In this document: positions 903 through 56,625 of the stretch, piece by piece | Numbering within the stretch: the first letter of the stretch is position 1 | Layout of the letters: each line of letters begins with the position of its first letter | DNA from: Legionella sp. | Lineage (GTDB): Bacteria > Pseudomonadota > Gammaproteobacteria > Legionellales > Legionellaceae | Assembly: GCF_047605385.1 (NCBI RefSeq) | Contig: NZ_JASGFU010000002.1 | Location: 19,419 to 83,418 of the forward strand | Direction: 5' to 3' | DNA: 64,000 nucleotides | Made by a program: the position numbers and the translations under genes | Notes under the pieces: generated by a model | Seen by the model: only the letters and a program-made list of their open reading frames with translations | Told to the model about the DNA's origin: nothing | Databases searched by the model: none

Positions 903-2297
903 TCAGTAATTTTTAATTAAATTAACTCCAATTTCACTCACAGTGGGTACTTTGCTGCGGCCATTTGCGCCGGTGTTAAATAACACTATTACTCCATATT
1001 GTTTTTTCGTGCTAATGCCAATAAAGCTACGAAAGTTGATGTGTCCACCAATTTTTCCGCAAATGCGGTCATTGTTAATTATTTCGCAGACCCAGGCATA
1101 GCCTTGCCCACCTTTGATAGGAAATTGATTCCCAATATTCCATTTTGCTGGTTGATTGATGGGCGAAGGAAGATATTTATTGGCTGCATGAGCTATTTGC
1201 ATCCCCTGAATTAGATCTATTTGTTTGGGGTTATTGTTGGTGCGAATGCCTAAATTAGCACGAATGTATTTAATCATGTCACTTGCATTACTGCGTAGGG
1301 CACCGGCACCCGCCCAAGGAATAAATGGGAAGGGAGCGCCTTGCTGATAGTGTTGGTTATTAAGGTGGTAGCCCATGGCATATTGAGCATTTTTCCAATT
1401 ATGGGTATTACAAGGCGTACCATTGACTGTTGTTTTAGTAGGGCAAGTCCCATTTTTAGCTTGCTTAGGTAAACAGGCATTAGTGCTGTTCATCTCTAAA
1501 GGATTAGTGATATTTGAGCAAATCCACCCATTAAAACTCCCTTCTAAAGCATCTGGGAAGCCTTCATAATTCATGAGTGCTTGTGCTAATAAGCCGAGGC
1601 TACTGTTTGAATAATGATTTTGCGTTGGTAAAAGTGTGGTTTGATAGATTGATCTTGGGTTAGCGCCAAGTCGTTGTTCACCAAGACAATATGGAAATGA
1701 CGGATCCAAGCGATTTATTGCGCGTACATAATTTTTTTGATTTAAAATCGGATTGCCGCTGTGTATGTTGACATCAGGTGGATTAGAAAAACATACCCCA
1801 CCAGAAAAGGTTACCAATTGTTCTAAGGTTACCGGAGCCTCATTAGCGGTTAACGAAAAATTGGAAGGCAGTAATGTACTTGCTAAATTGGATGGTTTTA
1901 ATAATCGTTTATGTACTAGAGTGCCTAACACTGCGCCGGTAAAGGTTTTCGTGACTGAGGCTAATTCAAACATCGTATTTTCATTAGGTGCCTCGCCATT
2001 TAATCTTTGTAGCCCGCAACTGATGTAACAGGTTTGCTCACCATTGTTAATATGCCTATAAATACCTATGATACCTCCTAAAGTTTGCCCTGGGATAACG
2101 TTTTGATTTTGAGTATTAAACACATGAGGGGTAAAGTGTATTATTTTTTGGTATTGGTTTTGGCAAAAAGGTGTTTGGTAATTGGCTACTGGTAATAATG
2201 TACAGGCAGAGTCTGCATGAGATAGAGATAAGGGAAGTAAACCTAATAATGCGCAAAGAATCATTTTTTTTGCTTTTGAATCTGATTTTTGTTCCAT
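903..2297 (-). CDS. secreted serine hydrolase, class C beta-lactamase / penicillin-binding-protein-like family
   Basis: N-terminal signal peptide (KKMILCALLGLLPLSLSHA). SxxK motif in FELASVTKTF and YxN motif in HYSNSSLG. 464 aa. Confidence 0.7.
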   Translation of the reverse strand: MEQKSDSKAKKMILCALLGLLPLSLSHADSACTLLPVANYQTPFCQNQYQKIIHFTPHVFNTQNQNVIPGQTLGGIIGIYRHINNGEQTCYISCGLQRLNGEAPNENTMFELASVTKTFTGAVLGTLVHKRLLKPSNLASTLLPSNFSLTANEAPVTLEQLVTFSGGVCFSNPPDVNIHSGNPILNQKNYVRAINRLDPSFPYCLGEQRLGANPRSIYQTTLLPTQNHYSNSSLGLLAQALMNYEGFPDALEGSFNGWICSNITNPLEMNSTNACLPKQAKNGTCPTKTTVNGTPCNTHNWKNAQYAMGYHLNNQHYQQGAPFPFIPWAGAGALRSNASDMIKYIRANLGIRTNNNPKQIDLIQGMQIAHAANKYLPSPINQPAKWNIGNQFPIKGGQGYAWVCEIINNDRICGKIGGHINFRSFIGISTKKQYGVIVLFNTGANGRSKVPTVSEIGVNLIKNY

Positions 2298-2343
2298 TGG
2301 GCCCCCTTATTATTGTCATGCTGTAAACAGTATAGCAAAAGAA

Positions 2344-2793
2344 TTAACTGCTTGTTTTTTTAGCAACATAAAGTATTTTTTTAACCTCTGCTATGAGTTT
2401 TCCTTGATCATCGGTAATCGGTACTATAAATTCGGGTTCAACTTTATCTTCTTGTTCTATTTGTTGGCGAATTCGAGTAATTTGTTCTGCTGATAAAGTA
2501 AATGTGGCATAAATAGTACCTTTAGCTGGTTTTTTGTAGTGGATGGAAGCAGATTTATCCCAAATAATATACTCTTTACCTAAGAGATTCATAAGCATGA
2601 GCATATAAAAGGGGTCGGTCATTGAATAAATCGAGCCCCCATATTGAGTTCCCACGTAGTTTTGATTCCAAAAATGCAACTTCATTTGCACTACAAGATG
2701 AGTATAATCAGGGCTAAAACTCTTTACGCTAATGCCGGCACCTAAAAATGGAGGCCAAATTCGCATTAATTTTAATAAATTTGAAAATTTCAT
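2344..2793 (-). CDS. DUF4442 / PaaI-like hotdog-fold (thioesterase-like) protein
   Basis: 149 aa. Overall resemblance (..WNQNYVGTQYGGSIYSMTDPFYMLML..IWDKSASIHYKKPAKG..) to the YiiD C-terminal/DUF4442 family, from memory. Confidence 0.5.
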   Translation of the reverse strand: MKFSNLLKLMRIWPPFLGAGISVKSFSPDYTHLVVQMKLHFWNQNYVGTQYGGSIYSMTDPFYMLMLMNLLGKEYIIWDKSASIHYKKPAKGTIYATFTLSAEQITRIRQQIEQEDKVEPEFIVPITDDQGKLIAEVKKILYVAKKTSS

Positions 2794-8255: not shown

Positions 8256-9392
8256 ATGGCGACTTGCAATTTTTTTTATCATAATGAAAATATTCAAAAA
8301 CACAGAGGTGAAATCCCCAAATATAAAATAGACTCAGGAACATTCCATACTGTAATCCTCACTGATAAAAATGAGCTTCTAGTATGTGGCATTAATTGGA
8401 CCGGTGCGCTTGGAATTAGAGAAGAAAAAGATCATTCTTCTATCAAGCCTCAATTAAAATGCATCAACGTCTCGATATCACATATTTTGCATAAAAGCGA
8501 ATATATTAAAAGAATTGCTGCAGGTAACAAGCATACAATAGTGCTGACTTCTAAGAACAGAATTCTCACTTGTGGCGAAAATGAAATGGGTCAACTGGGA
8601 ATTGCTACTCAATCTAAATCAAAATTTAGAAAAGATTGTTTCTTTAAATTTACCGATGTTTTTTTACCTTTACACGAAAGGGAAGAAATTGAGCAAATTG
8701 GTGCGGGTGATTCTCATACTGTACTCCTTACTTCTAAAAATAGAGTTCTAATGAGTGGAGTCAACAACTATAACCGATTTGGGTTTGACCTAAAGGCCTC
8801 CCAAAATAAATTCATTGAGTCCCCATTACCGATTTTATATGAAGAAGAGAAGATTTTACAACTTTTTGTTGGCAAGTGTAGCACGATGTTAGTCACCTCT
8901 AATAATAGACTTTTGGTTAATGGAATGAATAATCATGGCCAGCTTGGGCTAGGGCACACCAACTTTCAATTAGAATTCACCGAATCCTCATTATCGGTTT
9001 TATTCGAAAAAGAAAAAATTCAACAAATTGCTGCGGCAAGAGACCAAACTGTGTTACTTACCTCCAAAAATAGAGTTTTAGTAAGTGGATATAATAATGA
9101 TGGACGACTGGGGCTTGGAAATACTAATGATCAAACCAAGTTTAGCGAGGTTTTATTATCAGATATTTTATCTGTAGGAGAAAAGGTTGAGCAAATTGCC
9201 ACAGGAGAGGATTACATCATATTACTTACTAAAAAAAGAGTTTTAATGTGTGGACGTAACGAATTTGGCCAACTTGGTTTGGGATATAAGAAGAAGCAAG
9301 TTACTTTTACGCCAAGTTCTTTGAAAACTTCATACCATGAGCCTATTAAGCAAGAGCAATTAAGTACCATAACCACGTGCTTGCTAATGTAA
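8256..9392 (+). CDS. RCC1-repeat (beta-propeller) protein with C-terminal CaaX box, eukaryotic-like candidate effector
   Basis: Six clear blades with G.N..GQLG-type motifs (CGENEMGQLGI, NGMNNHGQLGL, SGYNNDGRLGL, CGRNEFGQLGL ..), alternating with AG..HTV.LTSKNR.L strands. The last four residues are C-L-L-M. Confidence 0.85.
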   Translation: MATCNFFYHNENIQKHRGEIPKYKIDSGTFHTVILTDKNELLVCGINWTGALGIREEKDHSSIKPQLKCINVSISHILHKSEYIKRIAAGNKHTIVLTSKNRILTCGENEMGQLGIATQSKSKFRKDCFFKFTDVFLPLHEREEIEQIGAGDSHTVLLTSKNRVLMSGVNNYNRFGFDLKASQNKFIESPLPILYEEEKILQLFVGKCSTMLVTSNNRLLVNGMNNHGQLGLGHTNFQLEFTESSLSVLFEKEKIQQIAAARDQTVLLTSKNRVLVSGYNNDGRLGLGNTNDQTKFSEVLLSDILSVGEKVEQIATGEDYIILLTKKRVLMCGRNEFGQLGLGYKKKQVTFTPSSLKTSYHEPIKQEQLSTITTCLLM

Positions 9393-49996: not shown

Positions 49997-50278
49997 TTAA
50001 TGATCCAAACGATGAATTGTTTCTTTAAGACCTTCTACATTACCCGAATAATGATAATAGATTCGGTCTTTAGGACAATCAACAATGCACAGTTGTTCTT
50101 GAGGATTATTGTCAAACTGTTTAAAAATCCAGAATAAACCATCGTAATGTTGATGTTCTATTTCTTTAAGCAAATCCACCATTTTTTCTTTTTGTAATTC
50201 GAAATGAGGATAAAGAAAGCCACACGAGCCACGAGTTATTTTGTAGGCAAAATGATTTTCTTTCATGACATGCTCCAC
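49997..50278 (-). CDS. hypothetical protein
   Basis: 93-aa ORF with no recognisable motifs. Supported only by ORF length and context. Confidence 0.35.
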   Translation of the reverse strand: MEHVMKENHFAYKITRGSCGFLYPHFELQKEKMVDLLKEIEHQHYDGLFWIFKQFDNNPQEQLCIVDCPKDRIYYHYSGNVEGLKETIHRLDH

Positions 50279-50355
50279 TTGAATAAAACTAGCCCTCTAT
50301 TATTTAAATTATAGCTTCCTTACAAAAAATAGAGATGAAAAAGCGAGATGCGTTC

Positions 50356-51000
50356 TCAAAGATTAATGGATAATCCTACCAAAATAGCATGTAGGGTAGG
50401 AATGTTGGTTAGGGTTTCTTTTTTCGAGTATGAATTAATTTGTATTGTGGGCGTATTGCCATAAATTCCTTGGTACAATAAGTTTAAACTGGCTAAAGCA
50501 GTAATAGGATAGCCAAAACCTGCTTGCACTTCTCCAGCAATTTGTGAAATTTCATTAACTGGAATGCGATCAATTTTCCAATGTCTGTAGGCAACTCCAC
50601 CTTTGATTTGAGCAAAAAAATCACTATTGCCCAAAGGATCGGATTTAGTGGTCACTAAGAAATCAAGTGTCGGTGAAAGCGTCGTTTCTATAGGTGTCCA
50701 ACGAATCAAACTTTGCTTTTCTTTAAGGATATTAAGGCAAATTTTTGTGCCAGTTTGTAAGCCTAACTCTAAACCAAGGGCAACATTGCCTGCAAGAAGC
50801 ATTTCGTTACCCAGTGCTAAACGGCCTAAGGCTAAATGTTTGTTATCGGATTTAACTTGATAATCACCGGTACCTGTGCTTGCAGTAATAGACCAGGGTT
50901 GATCTTGAGATGTGAGCTGCGGAGAATAGCGTCCAGCATAGGGAATTGATGACAATATAATTCCTATGGCAATGTGTAGTAACGCTAAGTATCTCTTCAT
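50356..51000 (-). CDS. putative outer-membrane beta-barrel protein
   Basis: ATG 51000 gives MKRYLALLHIAIGIILSSIPYA.. followed by alternating hydrophobic beta-strand patterns. The longer track ORF (to 51129) runs through a tRNA gene. Confidence 0.45.
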   Translation of the reverse strand: MKRYLALLHIAIGIILSSIPYAGRYSPQLTSQDQPWSITASTGTGDYQVKSDNKHLALGRLALGNEMLLAGNVALGLELGLQTGTKICLNILKEKQSLIRWTPIETTLSPTLDFLVTTKSDPLGNSDFFAQIKGGVAYRHWKIDRIPVNEISQIAGEVQAGFGYPITALASLNLLYQGIYGNTPTIQINSYSKKETLTNIPTLHAILVGLSINL

Positions 51001-51047
51001 CGCTTTATCCCTAATGAACTGTTCATATATATTGGGAATATTAATCT

Positions 51048-51135
51048 TGGCGGAGAGAGAGGGATTCGAACCCTCGATACGTTTCCGTATACACACTTTC
51101 CAGGCGTGCGCCTTCGACCGCTCGGCCATCTCTCC
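51048..51135 (-). tRNA. tRNA-Ser (anticodon GGA)
   Basis: Reverse complement reads GGAGAGATGGCCGAGCGGTCGAAGGCGCACGCCTGGAAAGTGTGTATACGGAAACGTATCGAGGGTTCGAATCCCTCTCTCTCCGCCA. It has a 7-bp acceptor stem, anticodon loop CTGGAAA, a long variable arm, T-loop GGTTCGAATCC and an encoded CCA. Confidence 0.92.
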
Positions 51136-51328
51136 ATCATTCGGGCAAGCTTATACATGTCGCGGCATAAAATCAACCCTTACAGGGTCTACGCATGAAA
51201 AATACGTTTACGTTCATGAATTTGCTCCTAGAAAAGTCGAGCATTGCGTGAAGGTATCGATTTCAATTGGAGATAATCAGTTTTGTATTGTGTATACTTA
51301 TAGGAAGTGTACATGAAAGGGATTAATT

Positions 51329-51787
51329 ATGTGGTTAAAAGTGGTGCTTTTATCTCTCAGTGGTATTGTTAGCAGTCCAATTTGGGCAATTACATGTTAT
51401 TATACGTTGGCTAAAGATAATTGTTGGCTTAAATATAATGTTTCTGTTGATGTGATGGATGCGGTTAGCGCAAAAGTTTTGACTACTGTGACTATTCCTG
51501 CCGGGCAAGCGTGGTCACGTGTTACTTTTCCCTGTGAAACGAACGGGCAAAAATTGTTGTATCACGCGCAATTTTCGCCTTTAATCTGGGAAAGTGAAAA
51601 GGGTAAAATTTATGTCTCTAAGAATTATTGGTCTTTACCAAATGGTGTGAAACCCGGTGATTCTGCATGGAATGTTTCTGTGTGTTACCCCTCTGATTTT
51701 TCTGAAGTACCACTGCCTCCTGAGGCGACAAATACTTGTAAGTGTGATTTCTCGAGTATTCCTGAAATTCCACCAAAGCAACTCTAG
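51329..51787 (+). CDS. hypothetical secreted Cys-rich protein
   Basis: Signal peptide MWLKVVLLSLSGIVSSPIWA, 8 Cys in the mature part. No family recognised. Confidence 0.5.
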   Translation: MWLKVVLLSLSGIVSSPIWAITCYYTLAKDNCWLKYNVSVDVMDAVSAKVLTTVTIPAGQAWSRVTFPCETNGQKLLYHAQFSPLIWESEKGKIYVSKNYWSLPNGVKPGDSAWNVSVCYPSDFSEVPLPPEATNTCKCDFSSIPEIPPKQL

Positions 51788-51845
51788 GGGTGAGGCTATG
51801 TGATGCAAGAGTATGGCCTGAATCTCTCTGCAAAAGGATAAAAAA

Positions 51846-52910
51846 GTGATAACTTTAAGAGCTAAAATCGGTCAAATGCTTATTATGGGTTTTGCAGGCA
51901 GTGAAGTTAATGATAAAAGTCTGGTCGCTGAATGGTTGTCTCAGGATGGAGTGGGCGGGGTTTTATTATTTGATCAAGATGTTTTAACCGGCGCTCATGG
52001 AAAAAACCTGAAAACTCCGCAACAAATAAAGCAATTAATACATCAGCTAAATTACTATTCTGCACAGCAAGCCGATGAAGATAATAATCAATTACCTTTA
52101 TTTGTAGCTATTGATTATGAAGGAGGCGCCATTGATCGACTCTCGATGATTGAAGGGTGCATGGCAACCATGCGTGCTCATGAGATGGTGAATTTATCGC
52201 CCGAGGCTTTAGATGCAGAGTTAAGTGATATGGCTAAGACGTTAAAAGAATTTGGGTTTAATCTTAATTTTGCTCCAGTAGTTGATTTACATTTGCATGA
52301 TCAACATGGCATTATTGGTGCGTTGCACCGTAGTTTTTCCGATAAACCTGAAACTGTGACTTGTCTAGCACGTACTTTTGTTAATGTATTTAGTCACTAT
52401 GGCATTGCCAGTTGTTATAAACATTTTCCTGGGCATGGTAGTGCTTTGGGTGATACTCATAAGGGTTTTGTTGATGTAACTCAAACCTTTAAAGAAGAAG
52501 AATTAATTCCCTATTATCAATTAGTTAAAGATACTCACAACCCCGTGATGATTATGACCGCTCATGTCATCAATAAACATTTAGATCCAGATGGATTGCC
52601 AGCTACCTTATCGCATCGAATGTTAACCGGTTTGCTTCGTGAAAAAATAGGTTATGAGGGTGTGATCGTGAGTGATGATTTGCAAATGCAGGCAATTACT
52701 GATCATTATTCTTTAGACGATGCTTTATGCCTGACAATTAACGCAGGTGCAGATATGATTATTTTTGCTAATCAATTAGGAAAAATTAGCGCTACGGAAG
52801 TTATTGAGCATATTGAAAGTTTGGTTTTGACTCATAAAATTGATTTACAGCGCATTGAAGAAGCATATCACAGAATAGTCCGATTAAAACAACAACTTAA
52901 CTGTTTGTGA
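51846..52910 (+). CDS. nagZ: beta-N-acetylhexosaminidase (glycoside hydrolase family 3, NagZ-like)
   Basis: ..IGQMLIMGF.., ..DYEGG.., KHFPGHG, ..VSDDLQM.. GTG start with an AAGGA RBS. Confidence 0.85.
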   Translation: MITLRAKIGQMLIMGFAGSEVNDKSLVAEWLSQDGVGGVLLFDQDVLTGAHGKNLKTPQQIKQLIHQLNYYSAQQADEDNNQLPLFVAIDYEGGAIDRLSMIEGCMATMRAHEMVNLSPEALDAELSDMAKTLKEFGFNLNFAPVVDLHLHDQHGIIGALHRSFSDKPETVTCLARTFVNVFSHYGIASCYKHFPGHGSALGDTHKGFVDVTQTFKEEELIPYYQLVKDTHNPVMIMTAHVINKHLDPDGLPATLSHRMLTGLLREKIGYEGVIVSDDLQMQAITDHYSLDDALCLTINAGADMIIFANQLGKISATEVIEHIESLVLTHKIDLQRIEEAYHRIVRLKQQLNCL

Positions 52911-53006
52911 GTGAAATTAGTTGGAGTTATTCGTGATTAAATACTCATCTGTCGGTAGAGATTTTTATTTTTACTTTGGTCGGGCAATTTTTAATGAAAT
53001 AAGCTA

Positions 53007-53034
53007 TTGACGGATGGTTTGAATATGTTAAAAT
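53007..53034 (+). promoter_or_regulatory. sigma-70 promoter with extended -10
   Basis: TTGACG (53007-53012), 16-nt spacer, TGt-TAAAAT (53026-53034). Confidence 0.6.
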
Positions 53035-53075
53035 GTATTCTCATTGCTCATATTTTGATCATTTATGGGGTTTAT

Positions 53076-53153
53076 ATGTTCGTTTCTTTAGTCCAAATCA
53101 TTTTTCCCTCTATTATCCCCTATGCACGTCCATATTCTTGTTGCTGTTGTTAG
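53076..53153 (+). promoter_or_regulatory. candidate Cys-rich leader peptide ORF (MFVSLVQIIFPSIIPYARPYSCCCC*)
   Basis: ATG 53076 preceded by GGGG. 25 codons, the last four being TGT TGC TGT TGT (53139-53150), then TAG. Lies in the ~160-nt leader of the transporter gene. Confidence 0.5.
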
Positions 53154-53199
53154 TCCTTGTTTTTATTGATTTTTACCTATTTATTTTAAGGATTTAACT

Positions 53200-54474
53200 A
53201 TGTGTGCAGCGCTTAATCAAAAGAAGAATTTTATATTCAGTACCCCAATAATTTATGCCGTGATGATTCTTTTAGGTATAGTCAGTGGTATGTCTAATCT
53301 GATGTTTTTAAAGGATCTTGGTTTATTACTTTCTGATTTATTTATTAAAATCTTTAAGTGTATTAGTTTGCCCATTATTTCTTTATCCATTATTGTGACT
53401 TTAGCAAACTACAGTTCTGATGGGTTAATGAAAAAGATTTGGCAGCGTACAATCAAATACACTTTTTCTACGACTATTATTGCTGCGATGATCAGTTGCA
53501 TACTTTATATTCTTATTCAGCCTAGTTCGGTACAGATAAGCGATGTTCCTCTTCAGCAATCGACTAATAACTTGGGTTATTTTGGCTATTTGACTAATAT
53601 TATTCCTACTAATTTATTATCACCTTTCCTTGAGCAACAAGTTATGGGTGTTTTATTTTTAAGTATTATTGTTGGGATTGCAATGCGACAAATTCCTGAT
53701 GTGGACTCTCGTGACACGGTTACTCGTTTTTTCCGCGGGATTCACGGCATGTTTTTGATCATGACGCGCTGGATTATTACTATTATTCCTTTAGGGTTGT
53801 TTGGCTTTATTACCTCAACAGTAGTGCAATTGCGTTCAGGAATGGACATCAAAGGTATAGGACAATATTTGCTAATTATTGTATTGGCAAATTTATTGCA
53901 AGGGTTTATTGTTTTACCTTTATGGCTTAAGAAAAATGGTATAAAGCCTTTTGCTGCCATGCGTTTTATGTTACCTGCATTATCCGTAGCATTTTTTTCC
54001 AAGTCTTCAGTGGGAACTTTGCCTGTGACCATGAACACGATTGAGAATAATCTACAGGTAAAGCCTGAGGTTAGCCGTTTTGTATTGCCTTTATGCACCA
54101 GTATTAATATGAATGGTTGTGCTGCATTTATTTTTGCTACTGTGATTTACCTTATGCAAAACCATGGGATGCCGATTTCTTATGCCACAATGGGATTATG
54201 GGTTATGGTGGCAACTGTAGCTGCAATTGGTAATGCGGGTGTTCCCATGGGCTGTTTTTTTCTTAGTATTAGTCTCTTATCCAGTATGAATGTTCCTATT
54301 GTATTGATGGGAGTTATTTTACCTTTCTATGGTTTAATCGATATGTTAGAAACGGCTTTGAATGTTTGGTCTGATGCGTGTGTGACCAAGATTGTTAATG
54401 ATAAGGCTATTGCGGAAGAAACCGGGGAAACTAAGCCTAAACGTCGATTGGTGATGATGCCTGAATTAGGATAG
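53200..54474 (+). CDS. DAACS-family amino acid:cation symporter, SstT-like (neutral small amino acids)
   Basis: 424 aa. ..FFSKSSVGTLPVTM.., ..CTSINMNGCAAF.., ..IDMLETALNVWSDA.. Glu replaces the substrate-carboxylate Arg of acidic-substrate carriers, and ETALN is as in SstT (from memory). Confidence 0.75.
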   Translation: MCAALNQKKNFIFSTPIIYAVMILLGIVSGMSNLMFLKDLGLLLSDLFIKIFKCISLPIISLSIIVTLANYSSDGLMKKIWQRTIKYTFSTTIIAAMISCILYILIQPSSVQISDVPLQQSTNNLGYFGYLTNIIPTNLLSPFLEQQVMGVLFLSIIVGIAMRQIPDVDSRDTVTRFFRGIHGMFLIMTRWIITIIPLGLFGFITSTVVQLRSGMDIKGIGQYLLIIVLANLLQGFIVLPLWLKKNGIKPFAAMRFMLPALSVAFFSKSSVGTLPVTMNTIENNLQVKPEVSRFVLPLCTSINMNGCAAFIFATVIYLMQNHGMPISYATMGLWVMVATVAAIGNAGVPMGCFFLSISLLSSMNVPIVLMGVILPFYGLIDMLETALNVWSDACVTKIVNDKAIAEETGETKPKRRLVMMPELG

Positions 54475-54486
54475 TCTTCTTTAATG

Positions 54487-54513
54487 GTGGAGCTAAAAAG
54501 CTCCACTTTTACT
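54487..54513. terminator. rho-independent terminator between convergent genes
   Basis: GTGGAGC / GCTCCAC stem, loop TAAAAA, then TTTTACTTTT. Confidence 0.7.
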
Positions 54514-54527
54514 TTTCTACGGAGCTA

Positions 54528-55391
54528 CTAGGCAGGTTTCAAGCAGCGATGATTTTCGTATTTATTACAATGATGCATGAAGTATTGCTTTAAACCAGAT
54601 ACAAACACTTCCTCACCACTGCTCATTAAGAAAATGCGTTCAGGCTGTAATTCGGTGTAATTAGAATCTCTGAGTATTCCTTTATACAACGCACCTGCAT
54701 AAGCAAATACCCACTTATTCAAGAAAGGTAAGACTAGCTCAGGATCGTTAGAATAGAAATTTTTATAGATATCAGTAAATAAAGTATTTTCCATCTCATA
54801 ATTATTTTTGAAGTAGAAATTGCTACGGTCGCGTCGATATTCTATAAAAGGAGGTTTTCCTGGTTTATTTTTCATTCCTGCTGCAGTACTTAAGGAAATA
54901 ACTAAACCTTTAGCGGATTCTATGTTGAATTGGGTTCCGAGGAAATTTGTACCATTATATTCTTGTAAAAATGAATTGAGAAAGGCTACAGCATTATCGT
55001 TTAGTGGATCAAAATAGCTGTTGATAACAAATTGAGTGGCAAGAAAGGTTTCTGGGTTATAATGGCAGCTGATGTAAATAGCATGAGCAAATTGATTGGT
55101 AGCAATATTGGCTACCAGAACTTTATTGATTTGTTCATTCACTACCGCACAATTTATTTGAAGCGCTTCAATGTTGGCTTCCATGCGAATGATCTGGGTT
55201 GGGTAATCAATACTGCGGTTAAATGATTTAAGTTGCTTTAAATTTCGGGGTTCATTTGTATAGATGAAGGTTTGCGTATTTTCTAGCTGGCTATTGGGGA
55301 CCAAGGACATGGTTTTTACTTTTTCTGAAGAGGAGCTAAAGGCGTAAAGCGGTAATAAAATCAGGGAAGTAACTAAATAATTAAATTTCAT
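54528..55391 (-). CDS. hypothetical secreted protein
   Basis: Signal peptide MKFNYLVTSLILLPLYAFS. 287 aa. No family recognised. Confidence 0.5.
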   Translation of the reverse strand: MKFNYLVTSLILLPLYAFSSSSEKVKTMSLVPNSQLENTQTFIYTNEPRNLKQLKSFNRSIDYPTQIIRMEANIEALQINCAVVNEQINKVLVANIATNQFAHAIYISCHYNPETFLATQFVINSYFDPLNDNAVAFLNSFLQEYNGTNFLGTQFNIESAKGLVISLSTAAGMKNKPGKPPFIEYRRDRSNFYFKNNYEMENTLFTDIYKNFYSNDPELVLPFLNKWVFAYAGALYKGILRDSNYTELQPERIFLMSSGEEVFVSGLKQYFMHHCNKYENHRCLKPA

Positions 55392-55621
55392 GACAAACTC
55401 CTTTTATACAATCCTCCATTACTCTTCATGGATCTGAGCATGTAGGGCTTACATTTTGAGTATAGATTAGTGTGTTTAAATTGAACATAGTGATTGTAAG
55501 TTCGAAAAAGAAATATTCTGTGAGAAATCTCTTGAGGTTATAGAAAATTTAAATGCGAATTACGGGTAAAATTCAGACCATAAAATTAGCTTTATAGGCA
55601 AAGATGTTACAATTGCTCTGG

Positions 55622-55657
55622 TAAAAATCCCTCAGCCTGCATGGTCACATGCGGCTG
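55622..55657 (-). terminator. rho-independent terminator after licD-like gene
   Basis: Minus strand: CAGCCGCATG / CATGCAGGCTG stem (one bulge) followed by AGGGATTTTTAC. Confidence 0.5.
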
Positions 55658-55701
55658 TAATAGCTTGCTTTTTGTAATAATTTCTTGTGAGAATCTATTC
55701 A

Positions 55702-56625
55702 TCAAATTGCGTTCTCACTTTGTTTATGAGATGGTTTACCTTCTACGCGGGAATGACAGGATTTTTGTCCGGAACAAGGATCTAAATACGGAATTAATTC
55801 TTTACAGTGCCGCATAACTCGCTGATTTTCTGGAGGTAAAGTTAAATAATCACCAAATTGCTGCGTCAAAATTTCTTTTGCATTGCAGGGAACATTAAAC
55901 AAAGAAGTTTCGAAGAGAACCTTTTTTAGAGGATAAATATCCTTTTTGTGAATAAAATTTTCTCCCACACAGTTGTAGCCGCGGCCAAGATAAGGGCTAT
56001 TGCTGGTGTTGGCTTTATGGATAATATTTTGTAATGAAGATTCCAGTATTGCAGTAGGTAAAAATTTTCCTAGAACTTTATATACGGATGCATGATGACC
56101 AATATTCACTACACCATATTTAGTACTCAATAAGCGAGAAATTTTTTTTGCCATAAATTTATAGCGCTTACGCAATTTAGCATCTTCTGGCATGCTGTCA
56201 TAAACAAAAACATCAATGAATATCCCTTGCACGTAGGGCTCATTGCCTTGTTCGTGTTTTTCAACATAATAACTGTGGCGATCACGGATTTTTAATGGTG
56301 TGGCCATATTAAAATAACCTGGGTCACTATGAATTGTTTGCAGCCAAATGTGCTCTGGTAATTCTTGAGGAGCAATACGCAAAAACTCTTCATAACTGGC
56401 TCTAGGCATGCCAATATCCATGTCATCATCCCAGGGAATGAATCCTTGATGACGAATTGCGCCTAAAAGAGTCCCTGCATCCAGCCAATAATCTAAACCA
56501 TGCTTTTGACAAAGGGCATCAACTGCTTTGAGCATGTTAAGCATTTTTAATTGTGCTTGTCTTAACCGGCCATCTGTAAGAGCAGTATCTGCAGAGTAGG
56601 GGGGCATTGTTGTTTTTAATTCCAT
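55702..56625 (-). CDS. LicD-family phosphotransferase (cholinephosphotransferase / fukutin-related nucleotidyltransferase fold)
   Basis: ..LDYWLDAGTLLGAIRHQGFIPWDDDMDIGM.. is the LicD signature. ATG 56625 is preferred over the track start at 56676. Confidence 0.75.
   Translation of the reverse strand: MELKTTMPPYSADTALTDGRLRQAQLKMLNMLKAVDALCQKHGLDYWLDAGTLLGAIRHQGFIPWDDDMDIGMPRASYEEFLRIAPQELPEHIWLQTIHSDPGYFNMATPLKIRDRHSYYVEKHEQGNEPYVQGIFIDVFVYDSMPEDAKLRKRYKFMAKKISRLLSTKYGVVNIGHHASVYKVLGKFLPTAILESSLQNIIHKANTSNSPYLGRGYNCVGENFIHKKDIYPLKKVLFETSLFNVPCNAKEILTQQFGDYLTLPPENQRVMRHCKELIPYLDPCSGQKSCHSRVEGKPSHKQSENAI

Follow-up and report, generated by a model that had tools for sequence, protein, structure and literature searches.

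A conserved leader ORF ending in cysteine codons precedes a DAACS-family transporter gene of Legionella and may act as a cysteine-responsive translational attenuator

Short leader peptides ending in a run of cysteine residues have been described in mycobacteria, where Ms5788A, Rv0815A and Rv2334A are encoded by polycysteine leaderless short open reading frames (ORFs) (Canestrari et al. 2020, Mol Microbiol 114:93; bioRxiv 10.1101/834739). Ms5788A of M. smegmatis has 30 codons, including eight C-terminal Cys codons, and its tract pairs around the Shine-Dalgarno sequence (SD) of the gene that follows; mutations of the start codon, of the reading frame and of the pairing, as well as nonsense mutations, demonstrated a cysteine-responsive translational attenuation, and six mycobacterial loci were found to be cysteine-responsive (bioRxiv 10.1101/834739). 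Here we describe an element of similar design in a stretch of 64,000 nucleotides from Legionella sp. (contig NZ_JASGFU010000002.1; hereafter the window), in which a 25-codon leader ORF ending in four Cys codons precedes a gene encoding a transporter of the DAACS/SDF family. With a probability of roughly 0.7, we propose that this element is a ribosome-mediated, cysteine-responsive translational attenuator, a model with good computational support. A requirement for L-cysteine is a defining culture trait of Legionella, the members of which are obligate cysteine auxotrophs. In the literature we found no paper naming the cysteine importer of Legionella or its cysteine sensing, and no such leader described for Legionella or any proteobacterium. 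The sequence-only reading that preceded this analysis had regarded a Cys-run leader as undescribed in Legionella, and our search agrees with it; polycysteine leaders as such were already known from the mycobacteria.

All parts of the element lie on the forward strand of the window. The leader ORF (53076..53153; ATG at 53076, 25 codons and a stop) encodes MFVSLVQIIFPSIIPYARPYSCCCC and is preceded by the SD GGGG (53067..53070), 5 nt 5' of the ATG, where most species carry AAGG. Its last four sense codons, TGT TGC TGT TGT (53139..53150), form the Cys-codon tract, which is the candidate sensor and the predicted 5' arm of a sequestering hairpin, and the stop codon TAG (53151-53153) follows directly. 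From this stop to the transporter ATG at 53200 there are 46 nt (given below as ~48 nt). These features, as well as GTCCTT (53153-53158) beside the stop and AAGGAT (53188-53193) in front of the transporter gene, are all present where the sequence-only reading had placed them. The same holds for the near-consensus promoter it had pointed out, as TTGACG-16-TAAAAT with a TG extension was found at 53007-53034, comprising the -35 hexamer TTGACG (53007..53012) and the extended -10 element TGTTAAAAT (TGn-TAAAAT, 53026..53034). Judged from this promoter match, transcription would start near 53041, which leaves a 5' untranslated region (5'UTR) of ~35 nt before the leader ATG, so that the leader would be SD-led and the mRNA not leaderless. 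In most of 61 anchored loci TTGAC(G/A) is kept at the -35 position, and TGTTA(G/A)AAT is kept genus-wide; the consensus promoter across loci reads TTGACg, 17 nt, TGTTAgAAT, with the -10 element 34-52 nt 5' of the leader ATG and the SD (AAGG) 5-7 nt before it. Between promoter and transporter (53007-53200) no terminator-like site was detected, in line with the earlier observation that a canonical terminator hairpin is lacking, and a GC-rich hairpin followed by a U-tract was seen in none of the inspected loci. Likewise, an Rfam search of 50000-56000 (E<=10) gave no leader or riboswitch family at 53000-53200.

For comparison, 80 genomic loci carrying an orthologous transporter (475 kb) were fetched from Legionellaceae genomes; one of them (L061) comes without upstream sequence, leaving 79 assessable loci, and the detailed leader set consisted of the window and 66 loci (n=67). 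A short SD-led ORF ending in consecutive Cys codons and a stop was present in 68/79 loci, finishing 29-71 nt before the transporter ATG. Within the detailed set the ORF measures 21-28 codons (median 25), the stop codon is TAA in 55/67 leaders, and the Cys run, which forms the extreme C-terminus in 58/67, comprises 2-7 codons with a mode of 4, or up to 20 when L. norrlandica is counted. Outside the run the peptide is wholly different between clades (MFVSLVQ..., MLTHSNQ..., MSIQSLY..., MKDLDLL...), and the leader of L. pneumophila (L039) reads MSIQSLYHYNSSLFHSIYQAICCCC. The comparison of orthologs that the sequence-only reading had proposed, in which a Cys-ending upstream ORF should persist while its other codons drift, thus turned out positive. 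Runs of at least three TGY codons with a stop behind them number 54 at the leader position, whereas the remainder of the 475 kb from the 80 loci, both strands included, holds just two; the 64-kb window has a single one on its two strands. A chance origin of the Cys-run leader is excluded.

Variable sites in the gapless leaders of one clade are distributed 8/4/12 over the three codon positions, and because third-position variation exceeds that at the first and second positions we read the leader ORF as a translated frame, probably translated from the predicted transcript. None of six leader peptides had an exact match among 15 billion predicted proteins, indicating that the ORF is unannotated. 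In L. norrlandica (L046:2391-2450) the leader ends in 20 straight Cys codons, which represent an expanded TGTTGCTGC unit and thereby show that the Cys tract evolves by repeat slippage. In the Fluoribacter/longbeachae clade (L005, L007, L010, L012, L013, L020, L026, and L060) the C-terminal half of the leader is kept as H(R/H)STLA(H/Q)FKL(V/I)S, the changes in it being mostly synonymous, which hints that the residues right before the Cys run may matter, possibly through nascent-chain effects on stalling.

Departures from this layout were also observed. Two loci (L032 and L066) have lost the leader ORF and kept the promoter, the 5'UTR and the transporter start, and in L044 the leader is reduced to MQRLSICC and a stop. 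In six metagenome-assembled genomes (MAGs) of the sister clade (L048, L065, L068, L070, L071, and L076) the promoter stands directly before the transporter gene. While the transporter starts with Met-Cys-Ala (ATG TGY GCN, 53200-53208 in the window) in nearly all leader-bearing species, this is not the case in the six leaderless MAGs, the orthologues of which are without the MCA(A/Q)H N-terminus. The transporters of all these deviating loci still carry the diagnostic motifs DMLETALNV and NMNGCA.

In the window, the minimum free energy (MFE) fold (-12.8 kcal/mol, z -1.42; all structure z-scores given here derive from mononucleotide and dinucleotide shuffles) contains two nested helices. The outer helix 1 joins UGUUGC of Cys codons 1-2 (53139-53144) to GCAGCG (53206..53211), which is transporter codons 3-4 (Ala-Ala), and encloses the anti-SD/SD helix, or helix 2 (53149-53159 with 53187-53198), with the AUG placed in an internal loop. 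In helix 2, the 5' arm GUUAGUCCUUG (53149..53159) takes in the 3' part of the last Cys codon together with the stop and the anti-SD, and it pairs in both MFE and centroid with UAAGGA-U-UUAAC (53187..53198), the 3' arm containing the transporter SD AAGGA (53188-53192). The U-rich and G-poor spacer in between (53154..53186) would form the hairpin loop.

Across species, the Cys tract is in most cases complementary to transporter codons 3-7 (GCA GCR CAY CAA CA), and the final four Cys codons typically form 10-11 bp with nucleotides +7 to +18, at -10 to -12.5 kcal/mol. When 12-nt windows of the leader were paired with transporter codons 1-5, the tract averaged -7.8 kcal/mol and 79% of loci scored -6 or lower, compared to -2 to -3 kcal/mol and 4-10% of loci for leader windows outside the tract. 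Similarly, when the tract was slid along 1.2 kb of transporter coding sequence, the start window had a mean of -9.3 kcal/mol against position means of -3.63 +/- 1.58, placing it in the top 2% per locus. At least five tract:codon pairs are part of the local MFE structure of 60/67 loci, so that of the two helices this one is the better conserved. The same topology appears in the folds of 12/12 representative species (L. pneumophila, L. longbeachae to L. maceachernii, L. massiliensis) and of the window. The fold of L. longbeachae has a z of -3.66, with 0/200 shuffles as stable, and for the stretch from the tract to ATG+20 the mean z is -0.98 +/- 0.17, reaching -1.60 in the major clade.

The codons used at the start of the transporter gene agree with such pairing. 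Ala3 is encoded by GCA in 51/62 genes (27% expected from the rest of the gene), and Ala4 by GCA or GCG, both of which can pair with U, in 41/42 (45% expected); moreover, synonymous recoding of codons 2-8 costs 1.47 +/- 0.24 kcal/mol of pairing. The registers of pairing differ by clade, with UGCUGC/GCAGCA where the protein starts MCAAH and UGUUGU/ACAACA where it starts MCAQH, and L055 retains GCAGC in a different reading frame (MCSEH). As far as the sequences tell, the first codons of the transporter thus seem to bear the mark of RNA-level selection for pairing.

The inner helix is the one that had been foreseen, as the sequence-only reading had proposed that GTCCTT behind the leader stop pairs with AAGGAT at the transporter SD and had called for folding the region in silico. 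The pairing GUCCUU/AAGGAU does occur in both MFE and centroid of the window, with an RNAduplex energy of -9.5 kcal/mol; it proved to be only the inner helix of a larger fold, present in the local MFE of 46/67 loci. Complementarity between the post-stop region and the SD is -5.40 across loci compared to -4.59 +/- 0.24 in shuffles (z -3.4), and its positional dip is no deeper than those at two sites within the ORF. Species-specific covariation of the anti-SD fails to reach significance (p=0.06), shuffled sequences are more structured than the stretch between the last Cys codons and ATG+6 (z +0.49), and masking the footprint of a stalled ribosome in whole-leader ensembles lowers pairing of the SD only from 0.75 to 0.70. 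With no covariation, a shallow dip, a weak masking effect and this z-score, anti-SD/SD pairing was rejected as the sole conserved helix, and it was this failure that led to the tract:codon pairing.

We therefore favor a model in which both helices would take part, one that upholds the interpretation of the sequence-only reading and refines it. A constitutive sigma-70 promoter would give rise to a single mRNA carrying the 25-codon leader ORF and the transporter gene. In the free RNA, the Cys tract, the stop codon and ~8 nt beyond would pair with the translation-initiation region of the transporter, with helix 1 formed by the tract and codons 3-4 (in most species 3-7) and helix 2 joining the stop and anti-SD to the SD up to the AUG, and 30S subunits would load poorly on this hairpin. 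When Cys-tRNA(Cys) is plentiful, ribosomes would pass the tract, terminate and depart, whereupon the hairpin would re-form. When Cys-tRNA(Cys) is scarce, a ribosome would wait with a Cys codon in its A site, covering the tract, the stop and ~10 nt more. This footprint would coincide with the 5' arms of both helices, which would melt and free the SD, the AUG and the first codons, allowing the transporter to be translated. Untranslated transporter mRNA may additionally face Rho-dependent polarity, favored by the G-poor, unstructured leader. Ribosome stalling and the direction of regulation are deduced from the anatomy of the locus and from precedent, and the geometry of the hairpin predicts de-repression upon cysteine starvation.

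Apart from the missing covariation and the weak masking effect of the inner helix, several observations weigh against this model. The dinucleotide-shuffle z of the 12 representative species spans -3.66 to +0.45, and in the distant clade L047-L080, which retains the leader ORF, the stretch reaching from the tract to ATG+20 does not exceed shuffles in structure (z +0.20). Recoded starts still average -9.3 kcal/mol, showing that the complementarity is largely built into the amino acids CAAHQQ, and since the loci are phylogenetically related, the binomial and standard-error figures overstate independence. RNAalifold returned no consensus structure for 55 aligned leaders, because the UGY repeat pairs in several registers. 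Furthermore, every helix considered here is a thermodynamic prediction in an AU-rich RNA and would close a loop of ~30-60 nt, the transcription start is positioned solely by the promoter match, and the Cys at transporter codon 2 would slow translation of the transporter itself during starvation.

Some of these observations would fit a different mechanism, in which transcription rather than translation is mainly controlled and the pyrimidine-rich leader and spacer serve as a loading site for Rho, similarly to tnaC; this site would be naked after normal termination on the leader and masked by a ribosome stalled on the terminal Cys codons together with the ribosomes queued behind it. The composition of the RNA speaks for such Rho-dependent attenuation, as the spacer has 55% T, 17% C and 6% G across loci, the leader ORF has 25% C and 11% G, and the leader of the window is 73% pyrimidine, which puts it among the top 0.01% of 110-nt windows. 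In addition, the leader as a whole has less structure than its shuffles (z +0.51 and +0.69), no intrinsic terminator was found in it, the Cys run adjoins the stop codon as the stall site of tnaC does, and the distant clade keeps its leader while showing no significant hairpin. However, the G-poor, pyrimidine-rich and unstructured region beside the leader stop is U-rich, not C-rich, and with ~48 nt to the next start it is far shorter than the tnaC-tnaA spacer of ~220 nt. Since the complementarity between tract and start and the bias at synonymous sites would also be left unexplained, we consider it rather unlikely that Rho is the main regulator, and it may instead add a secondary layer through polarity.

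Far less probable still are two readings that dispense with de-repression by a stalled ribosome. The short ORF could encode a functional Cys-rich micropeptide, metal- or redox-active or a partner of the transporter, with no role in sensing tRNA charging, and both the tightly kept length of the ORF and the mainly synonymous changes in the Fluoribacter/longbeachae motif would suit a peptide under selection. Yet outside clades only the Cys run is conserved, and its length ranges from 2 to 20; the G-poor composition points to constraint on the RNA, the nucleotides of the tract match the transporter start, and two lineages have lost the ORF while keeping promoter and transporter, all of which makes a micropeptide very improbable. 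Alternatively, the logic might be reversed, so that the transporter is translated by ribosomes that have completed the leader and re-initiate after crossing the spacer, and cysteine starvation lowers transporter synthesis, a drop that Cys codon 2 of the transporter would reinforce. Although the unstructured, U-rich spacer and the near-invariant MCA (ATG TGY GCN) of leader-bearing species are compatible with this, the transporter has a strong and conserved SD of its own (AAGGA), a gap of 30-68 nt is long for re-initiation, and the hairpin geometry points the other way. To our knowledge, every characterised codon-run leader is de-repressed by starvation, and we give the reversed logic hardly any weight. 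Attenuation of translation by a ribosome stalled on the Cys codons hence remains our preferred explanation of the element.

The putatively regulated gene (53200..54474) encodes a transporter of 424 aa that matches PF00375 (SDF) with 279 bits against a cutoff of 27.9 over residues 22-400. A protein with the same sequence (100% identity) occurs in a Legionella sp. MAG, and those of named Legionella and Fluoribacter species share 73-91% identity with it. The sequence-only reading had likened it to SstT, which finds no specific support, as the NCBIfam model for SstT (NF010151) gives 88.8 bits against a cutoff of 308, and GltP (93 bits) and DctA (88.9 bits) likewise score far below their cutoffs. 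Being equidistant from GltP and DctA, the protein was rejected as an SstT equivalog, and by its sequence it belongs to a Legionellaceae-specific clade of DAACS. The same reading had also noted a Glu in place of Arg in DMLETALNV of transmembrane segment 8 (TM8), and this was confirmed by alignment, where Glu384 takes the position of the distal-carboxylate Arg of solved aspartate transporters (dmaRt) and of the Thr/Cys of ASCT2. The Arg of the acidic-substrate signature (D-M-x-R-T-x-x-N-V; GltP/GltPh/EAAT, DctA) is thus absent. Furthermore, NMNGC (window 53305-53307 region) replaces NMDGT, the Na3/substrate motif of glutamate-transporter homologues. Both Glu384 and NMNGC are invariant in the Legionella orthologues, leaderless ones included, and therefore the protein may deviate from every characterised DAACS member in its ion coupling and its substrate. 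Given the sensor upstream, the natural guess is that the transporter takes up cysteine or a compound chemically close to it. No paper on this transporter was found, and searches with the flanking lpg numbers also gave nothing.

A further motif is found in the 5'UTR. In the window, the semi-conserved TTGCTCATAT (53044..53053, forward strand) is complementary to AUGUGUGCAG at the transporter start, with a predicted duplex of -7.8 kcal/mol. Across loci the motif forms a positional peak, 34% being at or below -6 kcal/mol against a background of 4-10%, and its pairing dominates the predicted ensemble in 12/67 loci. The variants TTGCACATAT and TTGTACATAT resemble the Cys tract, and complementarity to the transporter start AUGUGUGCAGC extends to up to 12 bp and -14 kcal/mol (L008, L009, L017, and L019). 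The motif and the Cys tract would compete for one target. A mini-ORF of 4-5 codons, (A/T/G)TG-N6-TTT-TAA, can also be read in the motif in many species. At its other end, the leader-transporter unit is closed by a terminator-like hairpin with a T-run (54486..54507, forward strand), and the gene on the opposite strand downstream of the transporter belongs to the Lpg0189 family of type II secretion substrates. A tRNA gene (Rfam RF00005, 58 bits; 51051-51135, reverse strand) is located ~2 kb 5' of the leader, between a 257-aa ORF and a NagZ-like gene.

Other Cys-ending frames were encountered outside the Legionellaceae. A contig from activated sludge (L082), assigned to an unrelated low-GC bacterium, carries MKHIQKRCCCC and a stop, a frame of 11 codons (2504-2620, reverse strand; tract 2565-2579), behind a TTGACA-17-TATAAT promoter and the SD GGGAG and followed by a spacer of 60 nt. 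The gene downstream (1344-2504, reverse strand) encodes a LivK-like periplasmic amino-acid-binding lipoprotein (Peripla_BP_6, E 4e-61), and GGCAGCGA beside its SD is complementary to UGCUGC. To judge from this arrangement, L082 looks like an independent polycysteine leader on another uptake system. In addition, two Bacteroidota-like contigs hold three copies of a conserved frame of ~35 codons that ends in C(R/L)MCCCC and a stop (L088:1240-1650 and 8920-9330; L096, reverse strand, ~1715-1729), upstream of genes for SusC-like TonB-dependent receptors (Plug and CarbopepD_reg_2). About 200 nt after these frames there are tiny ORFs (MKKNMCCCN, MKNKMCC, and MRKIMC, each with a stop) and a strong hairpin, GCCATTTCTGCGGCAACAGAAATGGC; these contigs may represent another Cys-codon leader system. 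A metagenome scan for TGTTGTTGCTGYTAA yielded, among the matches listed, mostly out-of-frame chance matches and no DAACS locus.

The attenuator model can be extended to a bolder claim, namely that the element serves the whole genus as a ribosome-based gauge of cysteine and turns on the cysteine importer of Legionella, and that the codons for MCAAHQQ have evolved as antisense of the polycysteine codons; we put this forward tentatively, at somewhat short of even odds. From L. pneumophila to Tatlockia, the element points to a single transporter gene and a single cis-acting sensor as candidates. If our interpretation is true, polycysteine attenuation is not confined to the biosynthesis operons of actinobacteria but reaches an uptake system in a proteobacterium, and the first codons of a regulated gene have been shaped by pairing with the codons of its sensor. 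Taken together with L082, polycysteine leaders would then be a recurrent, convergently evolved sensor well beyond mycobacteria.

Set against the known systems, the Legionella element resembles the Ms5788A type most in its layout, as in both a short ORF (30 codons in Ms5788A, 25 in the window) has its Cys run immediately in front of the stop, lacks annotation and drifts in its non-Cys residues. The polycysteine tract, in Legionella by prediction, pairs in each case with the region where translation of the following gene is initiated, and the release of this region by a ribosome stalled for Cys-tRNA was demonstrated in mycobacteria and is proposed here. On the other hand, the Legionella element occurs in a different phylum and is of independent origin, not a homologue, and its leader is SD-led with a 5'UTR of ~35 nt, whereas the mycobacterial ORFs are leaderless. 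Its RNA is AU-rich with a modest predicted hairpin (~ -13 kcal/mol), in contrast to the near-complete and stable mycobacterial duplex, and its tract would target codons 3-7 within the coding region instead of the region preceding the gene. Finally, the target is one transporter gene in a cysteine auxotroph, while the mycobacterial leaders control cysteine-biosynthesis and sulfur operons.

With trpL, hisL, pheL, thrL, leuL and ilvL the element shares a leader that carries a run of codons for the putative regulating amino acid, where the position of the ribosome would report tRNA charging. Unlike the trpL/hisL class, it has neither a terminator/antiterminator pair nor an intrinsic terminator, shows no match to an Rfam leader, and has its regulatory codons at the very end of the sense frame; the predicted point of control is translation initiation, and a transporter gene takes the place of a biosynthetic operon as the target. 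The proposed opening by a stalled leader ribosome of a hairpin that hides the downstream SD and start is reminiscent of ermCL and cat, the stall of which depends on antibiotic and nascent peptide, while in Legionella it would be caused by hungry codons. A leader of similar length (24 codons in tnaC), a stall site at the extreme 3' end of the ORF and an adjoining unstructured region are shared with tnaC-tnaA; however, tnaC senses free Trp through its nascent peptide and blocks Rho, whereas the Legionella sensor would be codon supply, with a spacer of ~48 nt. As for the transporter, it has the PF00375 fold family in common with SstT and ASCT1/2 (DAACS/SLC1), as well as a replaced distal-carboxylate Arg in TM8, but the replacement is Glu and not Thr/Cys, NMNGC stands for NMDGT, and it scores below the SstT, GltP and DctA equivalog cutoffs. 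In conclusion, the principle is known from mycobacteria, and the Legionella element would apparently be the first polycysteine attenuator in a proteobacterium and the first on an uptake system.

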